Positions 11,035-57,153 of a DNA stretch of 64,000 nucleotides are shown in pieces. The notes under the pieces are model-generated. The model searched no databases. It worked only from the letters and a program-made list of their open reading frames with translations, and was not told where the DNA came from. Numbering within the stretch: position 1 is the stretch's first letter; every line of letters starts with the position of its first letter. Source of the DNA: Shigella phage ESH35; the sequence record ON528745. One strand, 5' to 3'. Made by a program: the position numbers and the translations under genes.

Positions 11035-12719
11035 AGAATTTTAAACTAAACCGAGTTAGGTATCAAAATATAATGTCAGTAGGTGGAAATCCTATTGACA
11101 TTCAATTAGATAAGGTTCAAAAAACTCTTATTACTGGACGAAATGGCGGTGGTAAGTCTACTATGTTAGAAGCCATCACATTTGGGCTTTTTGGCAAGCC
11201 ATTTCGTGATGTAAAGAAAGGTCAATTAATAAACAGCACAAATAAGAAAGAACTTTTAGTTGAACTGTGGATGGAATATGATGAGAAAAAGTACTATATC
11301 AAAAGAGGACAAAAACCAAACGTTTTCGAAATCACCGTTAACGGTACACGTCTTAATGAATCTGCCAGCAGTAAAGATTTCCAAGCAGAATTTGAACAGC
11401 TTATCGGAATGTCATATGCCAGTTTCAAGCAGATTGTTGTCCTTGGTACAGCAGGGTATACCCCTTTCATGGGTTTGTCGACCCCTGCACGAAGAAAGCT
11501 TGTGGAAGACCTGCTTGAGGTAGGAACATTAGCTGAAATGGATAAGCTTAATAAAGCACTAATACGTGAATTAAATTCACAAAACCAAGTGCTTGATGTT
11601 AAAAAAGATAGTATTATCCAACAAATTAAAATATATAATGATAACGTTGAACGCCAGAAAAAATTAACTGGTGACAACCTTACTCGTCTTCAAAATATGT
11701 ATGATGATTTGGCAAAAGAAGCTAGAACGCTAAAATCAGAAATAGAAGAAGCTAATGAAAGATTAGTTAATATTGTTTTAGACGAAGACCCGACTGATGC
11801 ATTTAATAAAATCGGTCAAGAAGCAGTTTTAATTAAATCAAAAATTGACTCGTATAATAAAGTCATTAATATGTATCATGAAGGTGGATTATGTCCAACC
11901 TGCTTGTCACAATTAAGTTCCGGTGATAAAGTTGTTTCTAAAATTAAAGATAAAGTTTCTGAATGTACGCATTCGTTTGAACAGCTTTCAACACATCGTG
12001 ATAATTTAAAAGTTCTTGTTGATGAATACCGAGATAATATTAAAACCCAGCAGTCGTTGGCAAATGATATTCGCAATAAAAAGCAATCTCTAATCACGAC
12101 GGTAGATAAAGCTAAAAAAGTTAAAGCAGCTATAGAAAAAGCATCTTCTGAGTTTATTGACCATGCTGATGAAATAGCATTGCTTCAAGAAGAACTTGAT
12201 AAAATTGTTAAGACAAAAACTAATTTAGTAATGGAAAAATACCACCGAGGAATTTTGACTGATATGCTCAAAGATTCTGGTATTAAAGGTGCTATTATTA
12301 AAAAGTACATTCCATTATTTAATAAGCAGATTAACCATTATCTTAAAATAATGGAAGCGGATTATGTGTTTACATTAGATGAAGAATTTAATGAGACAAT
12401 TAAATCCCGTGGTCGTGAAGATTTTAGTTATGCTTCATTCAGTCAAGGTGAAAAAGCGCGAATTGATATTGCTCTTTTATTTACTTGGCGTGATATTGCT
12501 GAAAAAGTTTCAGGTGTTAAAATAAGTTGTTTATTTCTTGATGAAGTGTATGACGGTGCATTTGATGCTGAAGGCATTAAAAATGTAGCTAAAATTTTAG
12601 ATGGTTTGAAGGATACCAACTTCTTCATAATTTCGCATAAAGACCATGATCCGCAGGATTATGGACAGCATATTAAAATGGAAAAAGTTGGTAGATTTAG
12701 TGTTGCCACTATTAATTAA
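11031..12719 (+). CDS. 46: recombination endonuclease subunit (Rad50/SbcC-like ATPase)
   Basis: 562 aa, GTG start; Walker A GRNGGGKST, CPTC zinc hook, long coiled coil, C-terminal Walker B. Confidence 0.92.
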   Translation: MKNFKLNRVRYQNIMSVGGNPIDIQLDKVQKTLITGRNGGGKSTMLEAITFGLFGKPFRDVKKGQLINSTNKKELLVELWMEYDEKKYYIKRGQKPNVFEITVNGTRLNESASSKDFQAEFEQLIGMSYASFKQIVVLGTAGYTPFMGLSTPARRKLVEDLLEVGTLAEMDKLNKALIRELNSQNQVLDVKKDSIIQQIKIYNDNVERQKKLTGDNLTRLQNMYDDLAKEARTLKSEIEEANERLVNIVLDEDPTDAFNKIGQEAVLIKSKIDSYNKVINMYHEGGLCPTCLSQLSSGDKVVSKIKDKVSECTHSFEQLSTHRDNLKVLVDEYRDNIKTQQSLANDIRNKKQSLITTVDKAKKVKAAIEKASSEFIDHADEIALLQEELDKIVKTKTNLVMEKYHRGILTDMLKDSGIKGAIIKKYIPLFNKQINHYLKIMEADYVFTLDEEFNETIKSRGREDFSYASFSQGEKARIDIALLFTWRDIAEKVSGVKISCLFLDEVYDGAFDAEGIKNVAKILDGLKDTNFFIISHKDHDPQDYGQHIKMEKVGRFSVATIN

Positions 12720-13429
12720 TGTTTGTGCTTACAGTTATCATTATGCCACCTTGATAAATTTCCGAAAGTGGTAACTTTACCACAATGGACGCAAGTACCA
12801 GTCTTTTCAGTTTTCTTGCGTCCATTTGGATTTTTCTTGCAGAAATTTCTATGCGCTGCGATAACGCATTTCTTGCCTATCATTCCGCAGAATTCGCAGG
12901 ATGTTTCTTCAAGAATGATTGCTTTAAGCCCGTTTGAGATATTATTTCTGTGTTCTTTAGACATCGGTGGTCTAACTTTAGGATTAGGGTGATTCGGGCA
13001 GTTATCAAAATGCCATCGATTCATATTCCCGCTTAATCCGGACTTACCGCAATGTGGACAAGTTAGTCTTGCTTTATTAGCTACTGCATCAGACATTTTC
13101 TTTCGTGTCTCCTGGGAGAATTCTTTATTCTTTTCTATTTCCCAGAGTTTACGACGAATCCAACCGAAAGTTTTATTGTTACGTTTAGCGTATTTCGTGG
13201 AAACTGTCATCATGTTAGCAGCATAGACTAATTTTGGTTCAGAAGGATAAATTTTTACTAAAAGTTGATGAGCTACATAGTGCTCTTCCGGTGTTAAATC
13301 TACTAAGTTTGAAGCATCATCGCTGCCATTTAAACAGCGTGGTATAATGTGATGAGATTCAGTATAGCAATCAAGTTTTCGAGATTTAGCATTAGAGATT
13401 AACTTTTCATAAATTAGTTTATAATTCAT
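12716..13429 (-). mobile_element. free-standing HNH homing endonuclease with three C-x2-C...H...C zinc-knuckle repeats
   Basis: N-terminal HNH motif (SHHIIPR...NLVDLTPEEH); antisense to neighbours; 4-bp tail-to-tail overlap with gene 46. Confidence 0.75.
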
Positions 13430-13462: not shown

Positions 13463-13470
13463 TATTTATA
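13463..13470 (-). promoter_or_regulatory. late promoter TATAAATA for the HNH gene
   Basis: exact TATAAATA on - strand about 35 nt upstream of start; AAGGA SD at 6 nt spacing. Confidence 0.55.
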
Positions 13471-17060: not shown

Positions 17061-19757
17061 ATGAAAGAATTTTATATCTCTATCGAAACAGTCGGAAATA
17101 ATATTGTTGAACGTTATATTGATGAAAATGGAAAGGAACGTACCCGTGAAGTAGAATATCTTCCGACTATGTTTAGGCATTGTAAGGAAGAGTCAAAATA
17201 CAAAGACATTTATGGTAAAAATTGTGCTCCTCAAAAATTTCCATCAATGAAAGATGCACGAGACTGGATGAAACGAATGGAAGACATTGGTCTCGAAGCT
17301 CTCGGTATGAACGATTTTAAACTCGCTTATATCAGTGATACATATGGTTCAGAAATTGTTTATGACCGAAAATTTGTTCGTGTAGCTAACTGTGACATTG
17401 AGGTTACTGGTGATAAATTTCCTGACCCAATGAAAGCAGAATATGAAATTGATGCTATCACTCATTATGATTCAATTGACGATCGTTTTTACGTCTTTGA
17501 TTTGTTGAATTCAATGTACGGTTCAGTATCAAAATGGGATGCAAAGTTAGCTGCTAAGCTTGACTGTGAAGGTGGTGATGAAGTTCCTCAAGAAATTCTT
17601 GACCGAGTAATTTATATGCCATTTGATAATGAGCGTGATATGCTCATGGAATATATTAATCTCTGGGAACAGAAACGACCTGCTATTTTTACCGGTTGGA
17701 ATATTGAGGGATTTGACGTTCCGTATATCATGAATCGTGTTAAAATGGTTCTCGGTGAACGTAGTATGAAACGCTTCTCTCCAATCGGTCGAGTAAAATC
17801 TAAACTAATTCAAAATATGTACGGTAGCAAAGAAATTTATTCTATTGATGGCGTATCTATTCTTGATTATTTAGATTTATACAAGAAGTTCGCATTTACT
17901 AATTTGCCATCGTTCTCTTTGGAATCAGTTGCTCAACATGAAACCAAAAAAGGTAAATTGCCGTACGATGGTCCTATTAATAAACTTCGTGAGACTAATC
18001 ATCAACGATACATTAGTTATAACATCATTGACGTAGAATCAGTTCAAGCAATTGATAAAATTCGTGGGTTTATCGATCTAGTTTTAAGTATGTCTTATTA
18101 CGCTAAAATGCCTTTTTCTGGTGTAATGAGTCCTATTAAAACTTGGGATGCTATTATTTTTAACTCACTGAAAGGTGAACATAAGGTTATTCCTCAACAA
18201 GGTTCGCACGTTAAACAGAGTTTTCCAGGTGCATTTGTGTTTGAACCTAAACCGATTGCTCGTCGATACATTATGAGTTTTGACTTGACGTCTCTGTATC
18301 CTAGCATTATTCGTCAGGTTAACATTAGTCCTGAGACTATTCGTGGGCAGTTTAAAGTTCATCCAATTCATGAATATATCGCAGGAACAGCTCCTAAGCC
18401 AAGTGATGAATATTCTTGCTCTCCGAATGGATGGATGTATGATAAGCACCAAGAAGGTATCATTCCAAAGGAAATCGCTAAAGTATTTTTCCAGCGTAAA
18501 GATTGGAAAAAGAAAATGTTCGCGGAAGAAATGAATGCCGAAGCTATTAAAAAGATTATTATGAAAGGTGCAGGGTCTTGCTCAACTAAACCAGAAGTTG
18601 AACGATATGTTAAGTTCAATGATGATTTCTTAAACGAATTATCGAATTACACTGAATCTGTTCTTAATAGTCTGATTGAAGAATGTGAAAAAGCTGCTAC
18701 ACTCGCTAACACAAATCAGCTGAACCGTAAAATTCTTATTAACAGTCTTTATGGTGCTCTTGGTAATATTCATTTCCGCTACTATGATTTGCGAAATGCT
18801 ACTGCTATCACAATTTTCGGTCAAGTCGGTATTCAGTGGATTGCTCGTAAAATTAATGAGTATCTAAATAAAGTATGTGGAACTAATGGTGAAGATTTCA
18901 TCGCAGCAGGTGATACTGATTCGGTATATGTTTGTGTAGATAAAGTTATTGAAAAAGTAGGTCTTGACCGCTTTAAAGAACAAAATGATTTAGTTGAATT
19001 CATGAATCAGTTCGGTAAGAAAAAGATGGAACCTATGATTGATGTTGCATATCGTGAGTTATGTGATTATATGAATAATCGCGAGCATCTGATGCATATG
19101 GACCGTGAAGCTATTTCTTGTCCTCCGCTTGGTTCAAAGGGTGTTGGTGGATTTTGGAAAGCGAAAAAACGTTATGCTCTGAACGTTTATGATATGGAAG
19201 ATAAGCGATTTGCTGAACCACATCTAAAAATCATGGGTATGGAAACTCAGCAGAGTTCAACACCAAAAGCAGTACAAGAAGCTCTCGAAGAAAGTATTCG
19301 TCGTATTCTTCAAGAAGGTGAAGAGTCTGTCCAAGAATATTACAAGAACTTCGAGAAAGAATATCGTCAACTTGACTATAAAGTTATTGCTGAAGTAAAA
19401 ACTGCGAACGATATAGCGAAATATGATGATAAAGGTTGGCCAGGATTTAAATGCCCGTTCCATATTCGTGGTGTGCTAACTTATCGTCGAGCTGTTAGCG
19501 GTTTAGGTGTAGCTCCAATTTTGGATGGAAATAAAGTAATGGTTCTTCCATTGCGTGAAGGAAATCCATTTGGTGACAAATGCATTGCTTGGCCGTCGGG
19601 TACAGAACTTCCAAAAGAAATTCGTTCTGACGTACTGTCTTGGATTGACTACTCAACTTTGTTCCAAAAATCGTTTGTTAAACCGCTTGCGGGCATGTGT
19701 GAATCGGCTGGTATGGACTATGAAGAAAAAGCTTCGTTAGACTTCCTGTTTGGCTGA
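17061..19757 (+). CDS. 43: DNA polymerase (family B)
   Basis: 898 aa; exonuclease and polymerase motifs (DIE, SLYPSII, DTDS). Confidence 0.97.
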   Translation: MKEFYISIETVGNNIVERYIDENGKERTREVEYLPTMFRHCKEESKYKDIYGKNCAPQKFPSMKDARDWMKRMEDIGLEALGMNDFKLAYISDTYGSEIVYDRKFVRVANCDIEVTGDKFPDPMKAEYEIDAITHYDSIDDRFYVFDLLNSMYGSVSKWDAKLAAKLDCEGGDEVPQEILDRVIYMPFDNERDMLMEYINLWEQKRPAIFTGWNIEGFDVPYIMNRVKMVLGERSMKRFSPIGRVKSKLIQNMYGSKEIYSIDGVSILDYLDLYKKFAFTNLPSFSLESVAQHETKKGKLPYDGPINKLRETNHQRYISYNIIDVESVQAIDKIRGFIDLVLSMSYYAKMPFSGVMSPIKTWDAIIFNSLKGEHKVIPQQGSHVKQSFPGAFVFEPKPIARRYIMSFDLTSLYPSIIRQVNISPETIRGQFKVHPIHEYIAGTAPKPSDEYSCSPNGWMYDKHQEGIIPKEIAKVFFQRKDWKKKMFAEEMNAEAIKKIIMKGAGSCSTKPEVERYVKFNDDFLNELSNYTESVLNSLIEECEKAATLANTNQLNRKILINSLYGALGNIHFRYYDLRNATAITIFGQVGIQWIARKINEYLNKVCGTNGEDFIAAGDTDSVYVCVDKVIEKVGLDRFKEQNDLVEFMNQFGKKKMEPMIDVAYRELCDYMNNREHLMHMDREAISCPPLGSKGVGGFWKAKKRYALNVYDMEDKRFAEPHLKIMGMETQQSSTPKAVQEALEESIRRILQEGEESVQEYYKNFEKEYRQLDYKVIAEVKTANDIAKYDDKGWPGFKCPFHIRGVLTYRRAVSGLGVAPILDGNKVMVLPLREGNPFGDKCIAWPSGTELPKEIRSDVLSWIDYSTLFQKSFVKPLAGMCESAGMDYEEKASLDFLFG

Positions 19758-24165: not shown

Positions 24166-25593
24166 GTGGTAGAAATTATTCTTTCTCATCTTATATTTGA
24201 TCAAGCTTATTTTTCAAAAGTTTGGCCATATATGGATTCAGAATATTTTGAAAGTGGTCCAGCTAAAAATACATTCAAATTAATTAAATCTCATGTTAAT
24301 GAGTACCATAGCGTTCCATCTATTAATGCGTTAAATGTTGCATTAGAAAATAGTTCATTTACTGAAACAGAATATTCTGGTGTAAAAACACTTATTTCAA
24401 AACTGGCTGATTCTCCGGAAGACCACAGCTGGTTAGTAAAAGAAACAGAAAAATATGTTCAGCAAAGGGCGATGTTTAACGCCACATCTAAAATAATTGA
24501 AATTCAAACTAATGCTGAGCTTCCTCCGGAAAAACGAAATAAGAAAATGCCGGATGTTGGTGCTATTCCTGACATCATGCGCCAAGCATTATCAATTTCA
24601 TTTGATAGTTACGTTGGTCATGATTGGATGGATGACTACGAAGCACGTTGGCTATCTTATATGAATAAAGCTCGTAAGGTTCCATTTAAACTCAGAATTC
24701 TAAACAAAATTACGAAAGGCGGAGCTGAAACTGGAACGCTGAACGTTTTAATGGCTGGCGTTAACGTTGGTAAGTCATTAGGATTGTGTTCATTGGCAGC
24801 AGATTATTTACAGCTCGGACATAATGTTCTTTACATTTCCATGGAAATGGCAGAAGAAGTCTGCGCTAAACGTATTGATGCTAATATGCTTGATGTTTCT
24901 CTTGATGACATTGATGATGGGCATATTTCTTACGCTGAGTATAAAGGAAAAATGGAAAAATGGCGTGAGAAATCTACTCTCGGTCGTTTAATCGTTAAAC
25001 AGTATCCTACTGGTGGAGCAGATGCTAATACATTTCGATCGCTTTTAAACGAATTAAAGCTCAAGAAGAATTTTGTTCCAACAATCATTATTGTCGACTA
25101 TCTGGGTATTTGTAAATCTTGCCGCATTAGAGTTTACTCAGAAAATAGTTACACAACTGTTAAAGCCATTGCAGAGGAATTACGTGCTCTTGCTGTTGAA
25201 ACCGAAACTGTTCTTTGGACTGCAGCACAGGTTGGTAAACAAGCTTGGGATTCTTCTGATGTTAACATGAGCGATATTGCAGAATCTGCCGGTCTTCCAG
25301 CAACAGCTGATTTTATGCTTGCGGTCATTGAAACCGAGGAGTTAGCAGCTGCTGAACAACAACTTATTAAGCAAATCAAATCACGATATGGTGATAAGAA
25401 TAAATGGAATAAGTTTTTGATGGGTGTTCAAAAAGGAAATCAGAAATGGGTAGAAATTGAACAAGATTCTACTCCAACCGAAGTGAGTGAAGTAGCAGGT
25501 TCACAACAGATTCAGGCTGAACAGAATCGCTATCAAAGAAACGAATCAGCTCGAGCTCAGTTAGATGCTTTGGCAAATGAATTAAAATTTTAG
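24166..25593 (+). CDS. 41: replicative DNA helicase (DnaB-like)
   Basis: 475 aa, GTG start after AAGGAG; Walker A GVNVGKS. Confidence 0.97.
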   Translation: MVEIILSHLIFDQAYFSKVWPYMDSEYFESGPAKNTFKLIKSHVNEYHSVPSINALNVALENSSFTETEYSGVKTLISKLADSPEDHSWLVKETEKYVQQRAMFNATSKIIEIQTNAELPPEKRNKKMPDVGAIPDIMRQALSISFDSYVGHDWMDDYEARWLSYMNKARKVPFKLRILNKITKGGAETGTLNVLMAGVNVGKSLGLCSLAADYLQLGHNVLYISMEMAEEVCAKRIDANMLDVSLDDIDDGHISYAEYKGKMEKWREKSTLGRLIVKQYPTGGADANTFRSLLNELKLKKNFVPTIIIVDYLGICKSCRIRVYSENSYTTVKAIAEELRALAVETETVLWTAAQVGKQAWDSSDVNMSDIAESAGLPATADFMLAVIETEELAAAEQQLIKQIKSRYGDKNKWNKFLMGVQKGNQKWVEIEQDSTPTEVSEVAGSQQIQAEQNRYQRNESARAQLDALANELKF

Positions 25594-26447: not shown

Positions 26448-27073
26448 TGCTCTATCAAATGCACAAGTGCAAAGATACATACAAATATAAAGGTGCCCAG
26501 TGTTATATCATTAATCGTGAAAACGCGGGTCCAGGTCATTCGCATCAATCACGGTTTGTATTCGTTAAAAACAATGAAATTATAGCAGTTGCTAATTATA
26601 TGCTTGTGACTAATGATGTTAATCCGGTGCCTTTTACATATTATAATCTAATGGACTTGGCGTACGATTATAATTGGTTTAATCATGACACTTTGGCTCA
26701 TATCGAAGGCGTAGGATTTGACATCTCTTATTCTAGTTACTCGTTGTGTCCTATGAGCAGAGCTCATAAAGAGCCTGAATATTTTTCATTTCGTCGGCGT
26801 GTAGACTCTAAACGCAGTACAGAGTATGTCGGTGGAATCTTTGTTAAAGATAATCGAATTACTCGCATTATTTATCCTTTGGGCTGTGGTCAAAAAGATA
26901 TTGATGTTGATTTAGACTTTACTGAAAACATCATTAATCATATTGCTTCTGTGTATTTTGATATTGATCACAAAATTGTAATATGTGGATATGAATTACC
27001 ATCAGAAAAACAGTCTAAAGTAGATGTTTCTATTGATGACCAAATTTTTAATGCTTTTATGAATAGAGGTTAA
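26447..27073 (+). CDS. hypothetical protein (208 aa) at the T4 61.2 position
   Basis: ATGA overlap with sp; synteny only. Confidence 0.5.
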   Translation: MLYQMHKCKDTYKYKGAQCYIINRENAGPGHSHQSRFVFVKNNEIIAVANYMLVTNDVNPVPFTYYNLMDLAYDYNWFNHDTLAHIEGVGFDISYSSYSLCPMSRAHKEPEYFSFRRRVDSKRSTEYVGGIFVKDNRITRIIYPLGCGQKDIDVDLDFTENIINHIASVYFDIDHKIVICGYELPSEKQSKVDVSIDDQIFNAFMNRG

Positions 27074-27241: not shown

Positions 27242-28270
27242 ATGTCATTAATACCTTGGATTGATAATGAGTTTGCATACCGTGCATTGGCTCATTTACC
27301 TAAATTCGCACAAGTAAATAATAGTTCAACTTTTAAATTACGGTTTAGATGTCCCGTTTGTGGAGATTCAAAAACCGATCAAAATAAAGCCCGTGGATGG
27401 TATTATGGCGATAATAATGAAGGAAATATTCATTGTTATAACTGTAACTATCATGCACCAATTGGAATATATTTAAAGGAGTTTGAACCTGATTTATATC
27501 GTGAGTATATCTTTGAAATAAGAAAAGAAAAAGGTAAAAGTCGTCCAGTAGAAAAACCTAAAGAACTTCCTAAACAACCTGAGAAAAAAATAATTAAATC
27601 TCTTCCGTCATGTATTAGATTAGATAAACTGGCGGAAGACCATCCAATTATAAAATATGTAAAAGCTCGTTGTATTCCAAAGGATAAATGGAAATATCTT
27701 TGGTTTACAACCGAATGGCCTAAATTAGTTAATAGTATAGCGCCAGGAACATATAAAAAGGAAATACCTGAGCCTCGTCTTGTTATTCCAATTTATAATG
27801 CTAACGGAAAAGCCGAGTCTTTTCAAGGCCGTGCATTAAAGAAAGATGCTCCTCAAAAATATATCACCATAAAAGCTTATCCTGAAGCAACAAAAATCTA
27901 TGGCGTTGAACGAGTTAAAGATGGTGATGTATATGTTCTAGAAGGACCTATAGATTCACTTTTTATTGAAAATGGTATAGCTATTACGGGTGGTCAATTA
28001 GACCTAGAAGTTGTTCCATTTAAAGATAGACGTGTGTGGGTTTTAGATAATGAACCTCGTCATCCTGACACTATTAAACGAATGACTAAATTAGTTGATG
28101 CAGGAGAAAGGGTTATGTTTTGGGACAAATCTCCCTGGAAATCAAAAGATGTTAATGATATGATTAGAAAGGAAGGTGCAACCCCTGAACAAATTATGGA
28201 ATATATGAAAAATAATATTGCTCAGGGGTTGATGGCTAAAATGCGGTTATCTAAATATGCTAAGATTTAA
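27242..28270 (+). CDS. 61: DNA primase
   Basis: 342 aa; N-terminal zinc-binding CPVCGDS...CYNCN; TOPRIM-like region. Confidence 0.92.
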   Translation: MSLIPWIDNEFAYRALAHLPKFAQVNNSSTFKLRFRCPVCGDSKTDQNKARGWYYGDNNEGNIHCYNCNYHAPIGIYLKEFEPDLYREYIFEIRKEKGKSRPVEKPKELPKQPEKKIIKSLPSCIRLDKLAEDHPIIKYVKARCIPKDKWKYLWFTTEWPKLVNSIAPGTYKKEIPEPRLVIPIYNANGKAESFQGRALKKDAPQKYITIKAYPEATKIYGVERVKDGDVYVLEGPIDSLFIENGIAITGGQLDLEVVPFKDRRVWVLDNEPRHPDTIKRMTKLVDAGERVMFWDKSPWKSKDVNDMIRKEGATPEQIMEYMKNNIAQGLMAKMRLSKYAKI

Positions 28271-28467
28271 ATTAACCCAACTAAAGCGAATGCTAAATCT
28301 ACAAATGTATCAAGAGTAACTACTGGAATATTAATACCATGTGCAATTGCAACAGGTGATAGAATAAAGTTCCAGAGTAAAATTCCTACCATAGCAGAAA
28401 TAGTAAAAGCTATACGTTTTTTATTACCTTTTATGGCATTAACAAGTGCCATTAATTTTTGTACCAT
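28267..28467 (-). CDS. antisense small hydrophobic protein (66 aa)
   Basis: strong AAGGAGG SD 4 nt upstream; tail-to-tail 4-bp overlap with gene 61; two hydrophobic segments. Confidence 0.35.
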   Translation of the reverse strand: MVQKLMALVNAIKGNKKRIAFTISAMVGILLWNFILSPVAIAHGINIPVVTLDTFVDLAFALVGLI

Positions 28468-28478
28468 ATGTCCTCCTT

Positions 28479-28504
28479 ATTGCTTTATATATTTATTGTA
28501 TAAT
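28479..28504 (+). promoter_or_regulatory. MotA-dependent middle promoter for gene 56
   Basis: perfect MotA box ATTGCTTTA, 11 bp, then TATAAT. Confidence 0.55.
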
Positions 28505-28540
28505 TAATCTACTAACCCATGAATTGAAAGGAAAAATAAC

Positions 28541-29059
28541 ATGCCACATTTCAACGAATGTAGTCAACTGATCGAAGGCGCTGATAAAGCTCAAAATGAA
28601 TATTGGGATATTCTCGGTGATGAAAAAGACCCGCTGCAGGTAATGCTTGACATGCAGAAATCTCTGCAGATTCGTTTAGCTAAAGATAAACCTGAATATA
28701 ATCGTCATCCTGATGATTTGGCTACTGCCGGTGAAGTTGTTGATTGGCTACGTAATCAGAAAGATTATATTGACGATGAATTCCGTGAACTTCTGACATC
28801 TCTTGGCGGTATGAGCAATGGCGAAAAAGATGCATCTGCTGTATGGAAGCCTTGGAAAGCTCAACATGGTGAACGCCGTGAAACTCTGATTACTGATTTG
28901 TCTCCACAAGACCAATTGGAAATTAAATTTGAAATGATTGATATTCTCCATTTCGTTCTGAACATGTTCCAAGGTCTTGGTCTTACAGCTGAAGAAATCT
29001 TTAAACTTTATTACCTGAAAAATGCTGAAAATTTCGCACGTCAAGACCGAGGTTATTAA
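28541..29059 (+). CDS. 56: dCTPase/dUTPase (MazG-like NTP pyrophosphohydrolase)
   Basis: 172 aa, acidic EExxE-type motifs. Confidence 0.7.
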   Translation: MPHFNECSQLIEGADKAQNEYWDILGDEKDPLQVMLDMQKSLQIRLAKDKPEYNRHPDDLATAGEVVDWLRNQKDYIDDEFRELLTSLGGMSNGEKDASAVWKPWKAQHGERRETLITDLSPQDQLEIKFEMIDILHFVLNMFQGLGLTAEEIFKLYYLKNAENFARQDRGY

Positions 29060-29089
29060 CAGCTCGTCTTAAAAGCCGCGAGAATTTAT

Positions 29090-29097
29090 TATAAATA
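29090..29097 (+). promoter_or_regulatory. late promoter TATAAATA upstream of soc
   Basis: exact TATAAATA about 30 nt upstream of soc start. Confidence 0.55.
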
Positions 29098-29127
29098 ATC
29101 ATGTAATTTAAATAAAAGGAGAATTAC

Positions 29128-29385
29128 ATGGCTAGTACTCGCGGTTATGTTAATATCAAAACATTTGACCAAGCAGTTGATGGTGGTACAATTCAGGGTA
29201 AAGAAATTTCTGTAGCTTTCCCTCTTTATTCTGATGTTCACAAAATTTCTGGTGCTCATTATCAGACATTCCCTTCTGAAAAAGCAGCATATTCTACAGT
29301 ATATGAAGAAAATCAGCGTACTAAATGGATCACTGCTAATGAAGGTCTTTGGACTGTTACACCGACACCAGGTGTCGGTGGTTAA
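29128..29385 (+). CDS. soc: small outer capsid protein
   Basis: 85 aa; closely matches recalled T4 Soc. Confidence 0.8.
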   Translation: MASTRGYVNIKTFDQAVDGGTIQGKEISVAFPLYSDVHKISGAHYQTFPSEKAAYSTVYEENQRTKWITANEGLWTVTPTPGVGG

Positions 29386-49586: not shown

Positions 49587-49596
49587 GGAATAAATA

Positions 49597-51678: not shown

Positions 51679-52335
51679 TTATTTAGCCCTTCCTAATATT
51701 CTGGCCGCCTGAGAACATATTGATTCAAGGCGGTCATTACTTATATGATCATTTCTATACCAGTACATGGTTATTGTTCCAGCATAGATGTTATCCAAAT
51801 TAAAATATGGACAACTGTACATGTAGTTTATTTCGGGAGTAGGCTTTTTAGTTGGTAAAAAAGCAAATTTTGAGTTGGAATAATAATGACGTCCATTTAA
51901 ATGAACTGTATATTCATCCATAGTTTTATCAACAGGATATCCTCCAAGTGATTTTTCACTTATTGTTGAAGGTAATTTTCCTTCATATGCTATAACATCA
52001 ACAAAATAGTTTAAGTTTTTAGGGCGGAAAGAATACACCGCACTAAAGTCTGCCTCAGATGATATGTGAACTATCTGGAGTTGTTCCAGGGCGACAGATT
52101 CAAAGCGTGCATTTCTTTCCTTTTCAATAATTTCACTGTATGTTTCATACTTTGATTGCTTATAGTACTCAAAGAAACTATCTCCCCTATACCAAACAAT
52201 CGCCATCATAAATAAAAGAATTACGACAGCTACCCGGGAAGCAAGAACTTTCCCGGTAGCGTTATCTTTGAACAAGCGATCTAGAACACCAAATAGAATA
52301 TCAGAGGGCGAAAATGATATTCTAGGTGCTGCCAT
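51679..52335 (-). CDS. t: holin T
   Basis: 218 aa as in T4; one N-proximal transmembrane segment and large C-terminal domain; convergent with asiA. Confidence 0.9.
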   Translation of the reverse strand: MAAPRISFSPSDILFGVLDRLFKDNATGKVLASRVAVVILLFMMAIVWYRGDSFFEYYKQSKYETYSEIIEKERNARFESVALEQLQIVHISSEADFSAVYSFRPKNLNYFVDVIAYEGKLPSTISEKSLGGYPVDKTMDEYTVHLNGRHYYSNSKFAFLPTKKPTPEINYMYSCPYFNLDNIYAGTITMYWYRNDHISNDRLESICSQAARILGRAK

Positions 52336-56496: not shown

Positions 56497-57153
56497 TTAA
56501 TAATAGCCGAAATCTTGAACAGAATCCTTAATAACAATTTGGTCAAATCGTGGAACATGTGAGGGTTGAGATGCAGGATTCTGTGAAAAAAGGTTTGGCG
56601 CAGTTAAATTTCCTGTCATAGTGTCTCCAGAGCGTAATACCCTAGAGTTTGCGTTTGCTGTAACAATATTTATTGCTCCATCAACATAATCTTTCCGCGT
56701 AAGGTCATAATTATTTACTGGTGATAACGAAGTTACACGGATTTGTGATGCTTCAATTACGCCCTTTGAGCTAATATCTCCATTTCGTGTGTTAATTACT
56801 ACAGTTCTACCTGCTGTTCCTTGTGATGATTTAAAACCAATACCATACCACGAAACAATATCCATATTTGTAGTATCATACGTGGCACTATCACCAGGAC
56901 CAGCAAAAATACCATTATCGCCTGACCCTGCGCCAGGAACAGTCATTCCTTTATTAAAAATTACTTTATTTAAATAAGTACCACCATTAGCTTTAGAAAC
57001 GAAATCGTTATCTGCAGCTTGTGGTTTATTATATTCTGAATATATTTTAAATGATTTATAGAGTACATCGTCACCGGCTGGATTCAATGGAAAATTTCCT
57101 TGATGCCAAATGACAGAGCCTCCGGTTGTTGAACCTACTTTTAAATCAGCCAT
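56497..57153 (-). CDS. 36: long tail fibre distal connector
   Basis: 218 aa, between 35 and 37. Confidence 0.85.
   Translation of the reverse strand: MADLKVGSTTGGSVIWHQGNFPLNPAGDDVLYKSFKIYSEYNKPQAADNDFVSKANGGTYLNKVIFNKGMTVPGAGSGDNGIFAGPGDSATYDTTNMDIVSWYGIGFKSSQGTAGRTVVINTRNGDISSKGVIEASQIRVTSLSPVNNYDLTRKDYVDGAINIVTANANSRVLRSGDTMTGNLTAPNLFSQNPASQPSHVPRFDQIVIKDSVQDFGYY

Follow-up and report, generated by a model that had tools for sequence, protein, structure and literature searches.

We consider it probable that the 66-amino-acid open reading frame (ORF) lying on the reverse strand between genes 61 and 56 of Shigella phage ESH35 is a conserved gene, most likely expressed late and predicted to encode an inner-membrane protein, and that the absence of the Dam methyltransferase gene (dam) from the same junction is an ordinary polymorphism. 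The ORF is the orthologue of T4 dam.1, a stable gene of the Tevenvirinae backbone that is convergent with gene 61 and located upstream of gene 56.

The DNA analyzed here (the window) is a 64-kb stretch of ESH35, a Tequatrovirus (T4-like) phage, and the region of the junction is its early-gene block, read in the early-gene sense. In the ORF list, gene 41 (24166-25593) is followed by small ORFs including sp and 61.2, then by 61, 56 and soc (29128-29385). Gene 61, coding for a DNA primase of 342 amino acid residues, occupies positions 27242..28270 of the + strand and shares ~96-97% DNA identity with the annotated gene 61 of RB51, RB18 and other phages. Gene 56, coding for a dCTPase/dUTPase of 172 residues and identified from the ORF list and by similarity, occupies positions 28541..29059 of the same strand, which leaves a gap of 270 bp (28271-28540). 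The 201-bp reverse ORF (28267..28467, − strand) meets gene 61 stop to stop within the palindrome TTAA (28267-28270), which is common to both stop codons (that of gene 61 is 28268-28270). Its ATG is preceded at a distance of 4 nt by the Shine-Dalgarno sequence AAGGAGG (28472..28478, − strand), the GGAG(G) core of which is found at the same position in every lineage examined. The short dam-less gap, the reverse ORF with its strong ribosome site and its stop-to-stop overlap with gene 61 had all been part of the original prediction and are read directly from the sequence. No record nearly identical to the window was found in the phage collection. The closest ones over 25 kb are ~95-96% identical, RB18 reaching 95.6% across the full 25 kb, and the closest over the 2.2 kb surrounding the junction are FL08, LF73P1 and RB51 with 96-97%.

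The order 61, 310-bp gap, dam, 56, segF and soc annotated in the T4 reference NC_000866 confirms the T4 map given in the prediction. A tblastn search of the 64-kb window with T4 Dam returned no Dam-like sequence (best E-value of 0.66), and the catalytic motif (D/N/S)PP(Y/F/W) was found in none of the window ORFs of at least 120 residues. Dam or another adenine methylase could nevertheless be encoded in the ~100 kb outside the window, since the window represents only ~38% of a genome of such type and since Dam homologues sharing 54-62% identity do occur at other map positions, for example near 152 kb in RB43 and in Klebsiella phages. Against such a relocation, T4-type Dam is found at the 61/56 site (~15-17 kb) among the listed Tequatrovirus records that are numbered from rIIA. 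The complete genome closest to the window, that of RB18 (166.7 kb), provides the strongest argument: it has the same 61/56 junction, no methyltransferase among its 283 annotated features, a best tblastn E-value of 0.057 for Dam over the whole genome, and three chance matches to (D/N/S)PP(Y/F/W), none of which lies in a methylase-like ORF. Because of the RB18 genome, we regard a dam gene that has moved elsewhere in ESH35 as very unlikely. The absence of Dam thus held up to both homology and motif checks, in the 64-kb window and in the complete RB18 genome, and we infer that the phage as a whole is probably Dam-less.

The original prediction had also presented this state as a loss of dam, an interpretation that does not survive comparison with related phages. 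T4-type Dam (at least 90% identity) is present in 182 phage records while the Tequatrovirus form of the ORF is present in 502, rough counts as both include duplicate RefSeq/GenBank records, and about a third of the Tequatrovirus records would thus appear to carry T4-type Dam. Among the loci that we fetched, dam adjoins the ORF only in T4 and in two others (L010 and L011), and only these three differ upstream of the ORF. The arrangement 61, ORF, 56 without dam is found in Mosigvirus, Gaprivervirus, Gelderlandvirus, Dhakavirus, Kanagawavirus, in which a mazG-like gene adjoins the ORF, and Klebsiella T4-like phages; all sampled genera other than Tequatrovirus are without dam at the 61/56 site. 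The occurrence of the dam-less layout in these other genera makes it the common one and probably the ancestral one. Compared with the window, T4 contains 879 extra bases, comprising dam and its leader, exactly between the ribosome site of the ORF and the MotA box of gene 56. Our comparison shows dam in T4 as an 879-bp insertion into a conserved 61 - dam.1 - 56 backbone, so that to speak of loss puts events the wrong way round for most lineages. The simplest reading of these alignments is that dam was inserted in a part of the Tequatrovirus lineage, not lost in ESH35, and its absence from ESH35 appears to be an ordinary presence/absence polymorphism.

Nor does the presence of the reverse ORF depend on the absence of dam. 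The view that an antisense ORF occupies the junction through the absence of dam is contradicted by T4 itself, which carries the ORF between 61 and dam, inside the 310-bp gap, with 65 of 66 residues identical (98.5%). The T4 gene shares with that of ESH35 the 4-bp convergent stop overlap with gene 61 and the ribosome site. The two differ in their upstream surroundings: the T4 gene faces dam over a 112-bp spacer and is preceded by the box GATAAATA, whereas the gene of the window faces gene 56 directly and is preceded by the box AATAAATA, located inside the spacer of the gene 56 middle promoter. The T4T record HM137666 names the gene dam.1 (protein ADJ39749), and RB51, RB18 and RB69 annotate it as RB32ORF030w or RB69ORF029w. 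It is missing from the annotation of NC_000866 and KJ477684; by offset from gene 61, it would lie at ~17738-17938 on the + strand of NC_000866. Consequently, dam.1, which is conserved in at least seven T4-like genera, is absent from the T4 reference annotation and cannot be reported by studies mapped to NC_000866, such as one published T4 RNA-seq study. The gene is not mentioned in the literature that we searched on dam.1, on antisense or late transcription near gene 61, and on T4 ribosome profiling of unannotated ORFs.

The ORF product matches PHROG 2024, a family of unknown function, over profile positions 1-65 of 65 (E-value of 1.4e-31). By tblastn, the ORF was detected in 692 phage records, 502 of them at 90% identity or more and the other 190 at 44-57%. 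Neither the protein nor two divergent homologues matched any Pfam or NCBIfam family, even at an E-value of 10. A family profile built from 22 members and searched against 1.84 billion representative proteins retrieved only 8 proteins, all of them small, of the same pattern and without known function. In four remote members (60-68 residues), basic residues are clustered ahead of a hydrophobic helix that bears W-N-[FY]-x3-P, and G-x3-P-P and an acidic residue come after it. The ORF of the window fits the pattern of the whole family (60-69 residues): the N-terminus is basic, W-N-[FY]...P lies in the one hydrophobic helix, and G-x3-P and an acidic residue follow. Relatives of the remote members, placed by tblastn with the three proteins P0077, P0078 and P0080, are encoded by Gelderlandvirus (S16, CkP1), Klebsiella T4-like phages, Kanagawavirus (KLB31, Entb_45) and Dhakavirus (JS10, in which the copy is unannotated). 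In the five remote loci that were fetched, the gene is on the opposite strand between 61 and 56, or the mazG-like gene adjoining 56, and its stop-to-stop overlap with gene 61 is the usual situation. It is convergent with 61 and on the gene 56 side in T4, RB51, RB18, RB69, G2469, DK-13, S16, Roth79, KLB31, Entb_45 and JS10, a position relative to the primase gene that at least seven Tevenvirinae genera share. Many deposited genomes already contain both the gene and the dam-less layout, and the finding alone matters little: dam is frequently absent from T4 relatives, and hundreds of genomes list the ORF as a hypothetical protein.

Substitution patterns show that the amino acid sequence of dam.1 is under selection, as expected of a real gene. 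Within genera (Tequatrovirus and Mosigvirus), dN/dS is ~0.05-0.15; for instance, synonymous and non-synonymous changes number 15 and 4, respectively, between loci L004 and L015, and 9 and 3 in another pair. Between genera, synonymous differences are saturated (pS of 0.55-0.81) and pN is 0.30-0.37. Variable sites follow the order 3 > 1 > 2 by codon position in the Tequatrovirus and Mosigvirus sets, and position 2 is the lowest in all three sets compared. An overlapping frame cannot explain this pattern because the ORF overlaps gene 61 by just 4 nt.

These data also bear on the idea that the ORF is untranslated, the region being conserved as non-coding DNA or RNA (the trailer and terminator of gene 61, the leader of dam or 56, or a part of the origin oriA) with an incidental reading frame. 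This idea draws on the lack of an ORF annotation in the T4 reference record, on the proximity of the oriA-linked promoter of gene 56 and on a terminator-like hairpin on the gene 61 strand (28433..28452, + strand; 8 bp including 3 G-C, followed by TAATTTTTG), located inside codons 6-12 of the reverse ORF; the hairpin might act downstream of gene 61 as a weak terminator or attenuator. Non-coding conservation is nonetheless barely credible given that seven genera or more preserve the reading frame, its length (62-69 residues in full-length members), the start codon and the ribosome site, that amino acid motifs persist where synonymous sites are saturated, and that the dN/dS ratios within genera are low. 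As for the hairpin, it is conserved within Tequatrovirus only, and we rejected it as the cause of ORF conservation because it is absent in Mosigvirus and Gaprivervirus.

As a conserved coding sequence, dam.1 specifies a protein with a strongly asymmetric charge distribution. Residues 1-18 include 5 K/R and no acidic residue, the hydropathy peak spans residues ~19-42 and contains the invariant W-N-F...P motif, and residues 43-66 contain no K/R and 2 D (the conserved D53 and D57, four residues apart) and end in ...ALVGLI. A conserved HG-x3-P loop precedes the short C-terminal helix. AlphaFold2, run with the 22-sequence alignment, modeled helices at residues 2-14, 16-42 and 52-63 (mean pLDDT of 78.7). 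Nolan et al. 2006 predicted a single transmembrane segment (21-41) in RB69ORF029w. A Foldseek search with the model gave no match in the PDB, and only family members and noise in BFVD. On the basis of the positive-inside rule, dam.1 is predicted to encode a single-pass inner-membrane protein with its N-terminus in and its C-terminus out. The C-terminal 19 residues are also hydrophobic (Kyte-Doolittle of ~1.6-1.9) and may form a second membrane span, though this is less likely because the C-terminal helix is short (52-63) and carries two conserved acidic residues, and because the segment is shorter and more polar in remote homologues. The earlier description of a two-helix hydrophobic protein thus applies to one clear transmembrane stretch (~19-42), the second being doubtful. 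Similarly, selection, alignments, the AlphaFold2 model and hydropathy agree with the small membrane protein that had been proposed, whereas nothing shows that it acts as an effector.

Being small, hydrophobic and probably late, the protein invites comparison with holins or pinholins, and a member of the family from phage OE5505 (UniProt/BFVD A0A482MZV5) is indeed labelled “Holin”. This label is a depositor's name on a protein 91% identical to that of the window, with no evidence behind it, and we rejected it because the features of holin families are lacking: no Pfam or NCBIfam holin family is matched at E-values up to 10, the charged hydrophilic C-terminal tail is missing as seen from the composition of residues 43-66, and the gene is located between 61 and 56, far from the endolysin gene e. 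Moreover, the holin T is already encoded in the window by t, which has its own late box. We therefore hold a holin or pinholin function to be extremely unlikely.

The upstream region of dam.1 suggests that this membrane protein is produced late in infection. The T4 late promoter corresponds to TATAAATA at positions −13 to −6, the first T of which is poorly conserved in T4 relatives (PMC1524935). In the window, a late-promoter-like box AATAAATA (28490..28497, − strand) matches this consensus at 7 of 8 positions and lies 22 nt before the ATG of the ORF, from which a transcript start near 28484 and a leader of ~17 nt are predicted. We observed xATAAATA 10-25 nt before the dam.1 ATG in all sampled lineages except S16. 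The sequence just upstream of the start codon has diverged between lineages, yet the ATAAATA core, a few bases ahead of the ribosome site, is kept in all but one. Specifically, the box is AATAAATA in the window and the other dam-less Tequatroviruses, in Mosigvirus and in JS10 (Dhakavirus), GATAAATA in T4 and the other dam-carrying Tequatroviruses, and CATAAATA in Gaprivervirus, Klebsiella phage Roth79 and KLB31 (Kanagawavirus). In Entb_45 (Kanagawavirus), the intergenic space is 22 bp long and contains a perfect TATAAATA, and S16 (Gelderlandvirus) has TTAAATA only.

The distribution of this motif over the window gives good, though indirect, support to dam.1 being a late gene. ATAAATA is depleted (11 sites versus 36.7 ± 6.4 expected), as is TATAAATA (4 versus 9.7 expected), and 7 of the 11 ATAAATA sites lie 18-34 nt before ORF starts, including those of the late genes 49, soc, t, 36 and 34. 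The dam.1 box, at 22 nt, falls within the range of the minimal gp55-dependent promoters of these T4 late genes. Its first base is not the consensus T, the site was missed by a published scan of RB69, and its late start is predicted from sequence. The first base is A in the window, G in T4 and C in Gaprivervirus, compared with T in the consensus. The published scan is the late-promoter HMM search of Nolan et al. 2006, the supplement of which lists no site before RB69ORF029w; this negative counts against a late gene.

Together, the negative HMM result and a first base that deviates from the consensus in most lineages leave some room for a gene that is real but expressed early or in the middle period, either by read-through or from a host- or MotA-type promoter located further upstream on the − strand, with an early role such as superinfection exclusion like that of Imm and Sp. 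In our consensus scan, the 200 bp upstream contained no sigma-70-like site on the − strand, and the sole match on this strand, located inside gene 56 (28724-28695), was weak (9 of 12). In Entb_45 and KLB31, the ~22-30 bp available upstream contain only a (T/C)ATAAATA box and the ribosome site, a space that suits a minimal late promoter but is too short for a −35/−10 pair. Finally, t and 49, both late genes of the window, are preceded by the AATAAATA variant too. Early or middle expression is improbable in light of these observations, and late transcription of dam.1 is the most likely mode.

The late box of ESH35 is embedded in a second regulatory element. Middle promoters are defined by a MotA box, (a/t)(a/t)(a/t)TGCTTtA, separated by 12 ± 1 bp from the −10 element TAtaaT (PMC2988021). 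On the + strand, the MotA box TATTGCTTTA (28478..28487) matches this consensus and is followed after 11 bp by TATAAT (28499..28504), 36 nt before the ATG of gene 56; the middle transcript would start near 28511. Box, spacing and −10 element at 28478-28504 all agree with a MotA/AsiA-dependent middle promoter, as had been predicted for gene 56. The region aligns with the mapped T4 middle promoter P56/69 (start site 16813), which the T4 records NC_000866 and T4T tie to the primer transcript of the origin oriA; a replication review describes some evidence for this link (PMC3016281). The MotA box, the spacing, TATAAT and the downstream leader (...ATGAATTGAAAGGAAAA...ATG) are the same in both phages. 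The difference lies upstream, the MotA box directly following the dam stop codon in T4 and the ribosome site of the reverse gene in the window, where the divergent promoters overlap. Without the 879 bp, the ribosome site and late box of dam.1 abut the gene 56 promoter in divergent orientation and overlap it in part. In the window, the 11 bp that separate the MotA box from the −10 element contain the late box (28490-28497, − strand), which is found just outside the MotA box in Mosigvirus and 879 bp away in T4. Part of the conservation of the box in the window could thus serve the promoter of the opposite strand, a caveat that does not apply to T4 and Mosigvirus, in which the box is outside the middle promoter. 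Any regulatory effect of the overlapping late and middle promoters is speculation.

For a late gene encoding a membrane protein, we propose that RNA polymerase directed by gp55 would start at the box described above, and that the short leader would be translated from the strong AAGGAGG site. The product would keep its basic amphipathic N-terminal helix in the cytoplasm, cross the membrane by one transmembrane helix, and expose its last ~24 residues, comprising the HG-x3-P loop and a short helix with an acidic face, to the periplasm. With low confidence, our best guess for the function is an accessory role in late envelope events, for instance in lysis timing or exclusion. A more ambitious version is unlikely, though worth stating: dam.1 would encode an unrecognised late membrane protein, overlooked owing to its omission from the T4 reference record, taking part in an envelope process of T-even phages (lysis timing or inhibition, superinfection exclusion, or membrane-bound head initiation), with its late promoter nested, in dam-less phages, in the spacer of the oriA-linked gene 56 promoter. 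If this nesting were functional, late transcription could also shut the middle promoter of gene 56 by occupancy. Reading dam.1 as a late-expressed membrane protein narrows where its phenotype should be sought. T4 Imm, RI, Ac and the i-spanin PseT.3 are likewise small, with a single N-terminal anchor and a short periplasmic part, but share no detectable sequence or fold similarity with it, and the resemblance is one of type only, not of membership. A toxin of a type I toxin-antitoxin system was considered only for the size and antisense setting of the ORF. No homology to known toxins appeared in the Pfam and NCBIfam scans, and the opposite-strand RNA that overlaps the ORF is the 61/56 messenger, not a dedicated small RNA.

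The junction between genes 61 and 56 is an insertion hot spot. In the Gaprivervirus DK-13, a homing endonuclease gene separates the dam.1 homologue from gene 61 (locus L005, 2372-3121), and in one Tequatrovirus contig from IMG/VR the distance between dam and dam.1 reaches about 660 bp (locus L011, 1841-2501), compared to 112 bp in T4. On the other side of gene 56, only 68 bp separate this gene from soc in the window (29060-29127), and the late box of soc (29090-29097) lies inside this gap. The same interval contains the homing endonuclease gene segF in T4 and two additional soc-like small genes in RB18. Since segF is missing from the short interval of ESH35, this phage lacks both T4 insertions of the block, dam and segF.

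GATC is the target site of Dam. We observed that GATC is the most depleted of the 4-base palindromes of the same composition class in the window and in the RB18 genome, which has no dam, with 76 sites observed for 207 expected in the window and 188 for 542 in RB18 (observed/expected ratio of about 0.35).

Codons 6-12 of the reverse-strand dam.1 ORF contain a terminator-like hairpin of the gene 61 strand (28433-28452, +; ATGGCATTAACAAGTGCCAT, then TAATTTTTG), which is kept in Tequatrovirus loci and missing from Mosigvirus and Gaprivervirus. This hairpin could attenuate read-through from gene 61 into gene 56.

The dam.1 gene is annotated neither in the RefSeq record of T4 (NC_000866, about 17738-17938, +) nor in that of JS10 (locus L027, 1774-1974). 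Consequently, one T4 RNA-seq study whose reads were mapped to NC_000866 cannot report this gene.

Across the whole window, ATAAATA, the core of the late promoter, occurs far less often than expected, with 11 sites observed for 36.7 expected by composition. Four of the 11 have no obvious gene: 26869-26876 (-, GATAAATA), 52207-52214 (+, CATAAATA), 56667-56674 (-, AATAAATA) and 49589-49596 (+, AATAAATA), the last immediately adjoined by an ATG. A perfect TATAAATA box (13463-13470, -) precedes a 237-aa ORF located just after gene 46 on the opposite strand (12716-13429, -), which looks like a candidate HNH-type homing endonuclease based on HHIIPR...N motifs recognized by eye. Cys/His clusters are abundant in this ORF.
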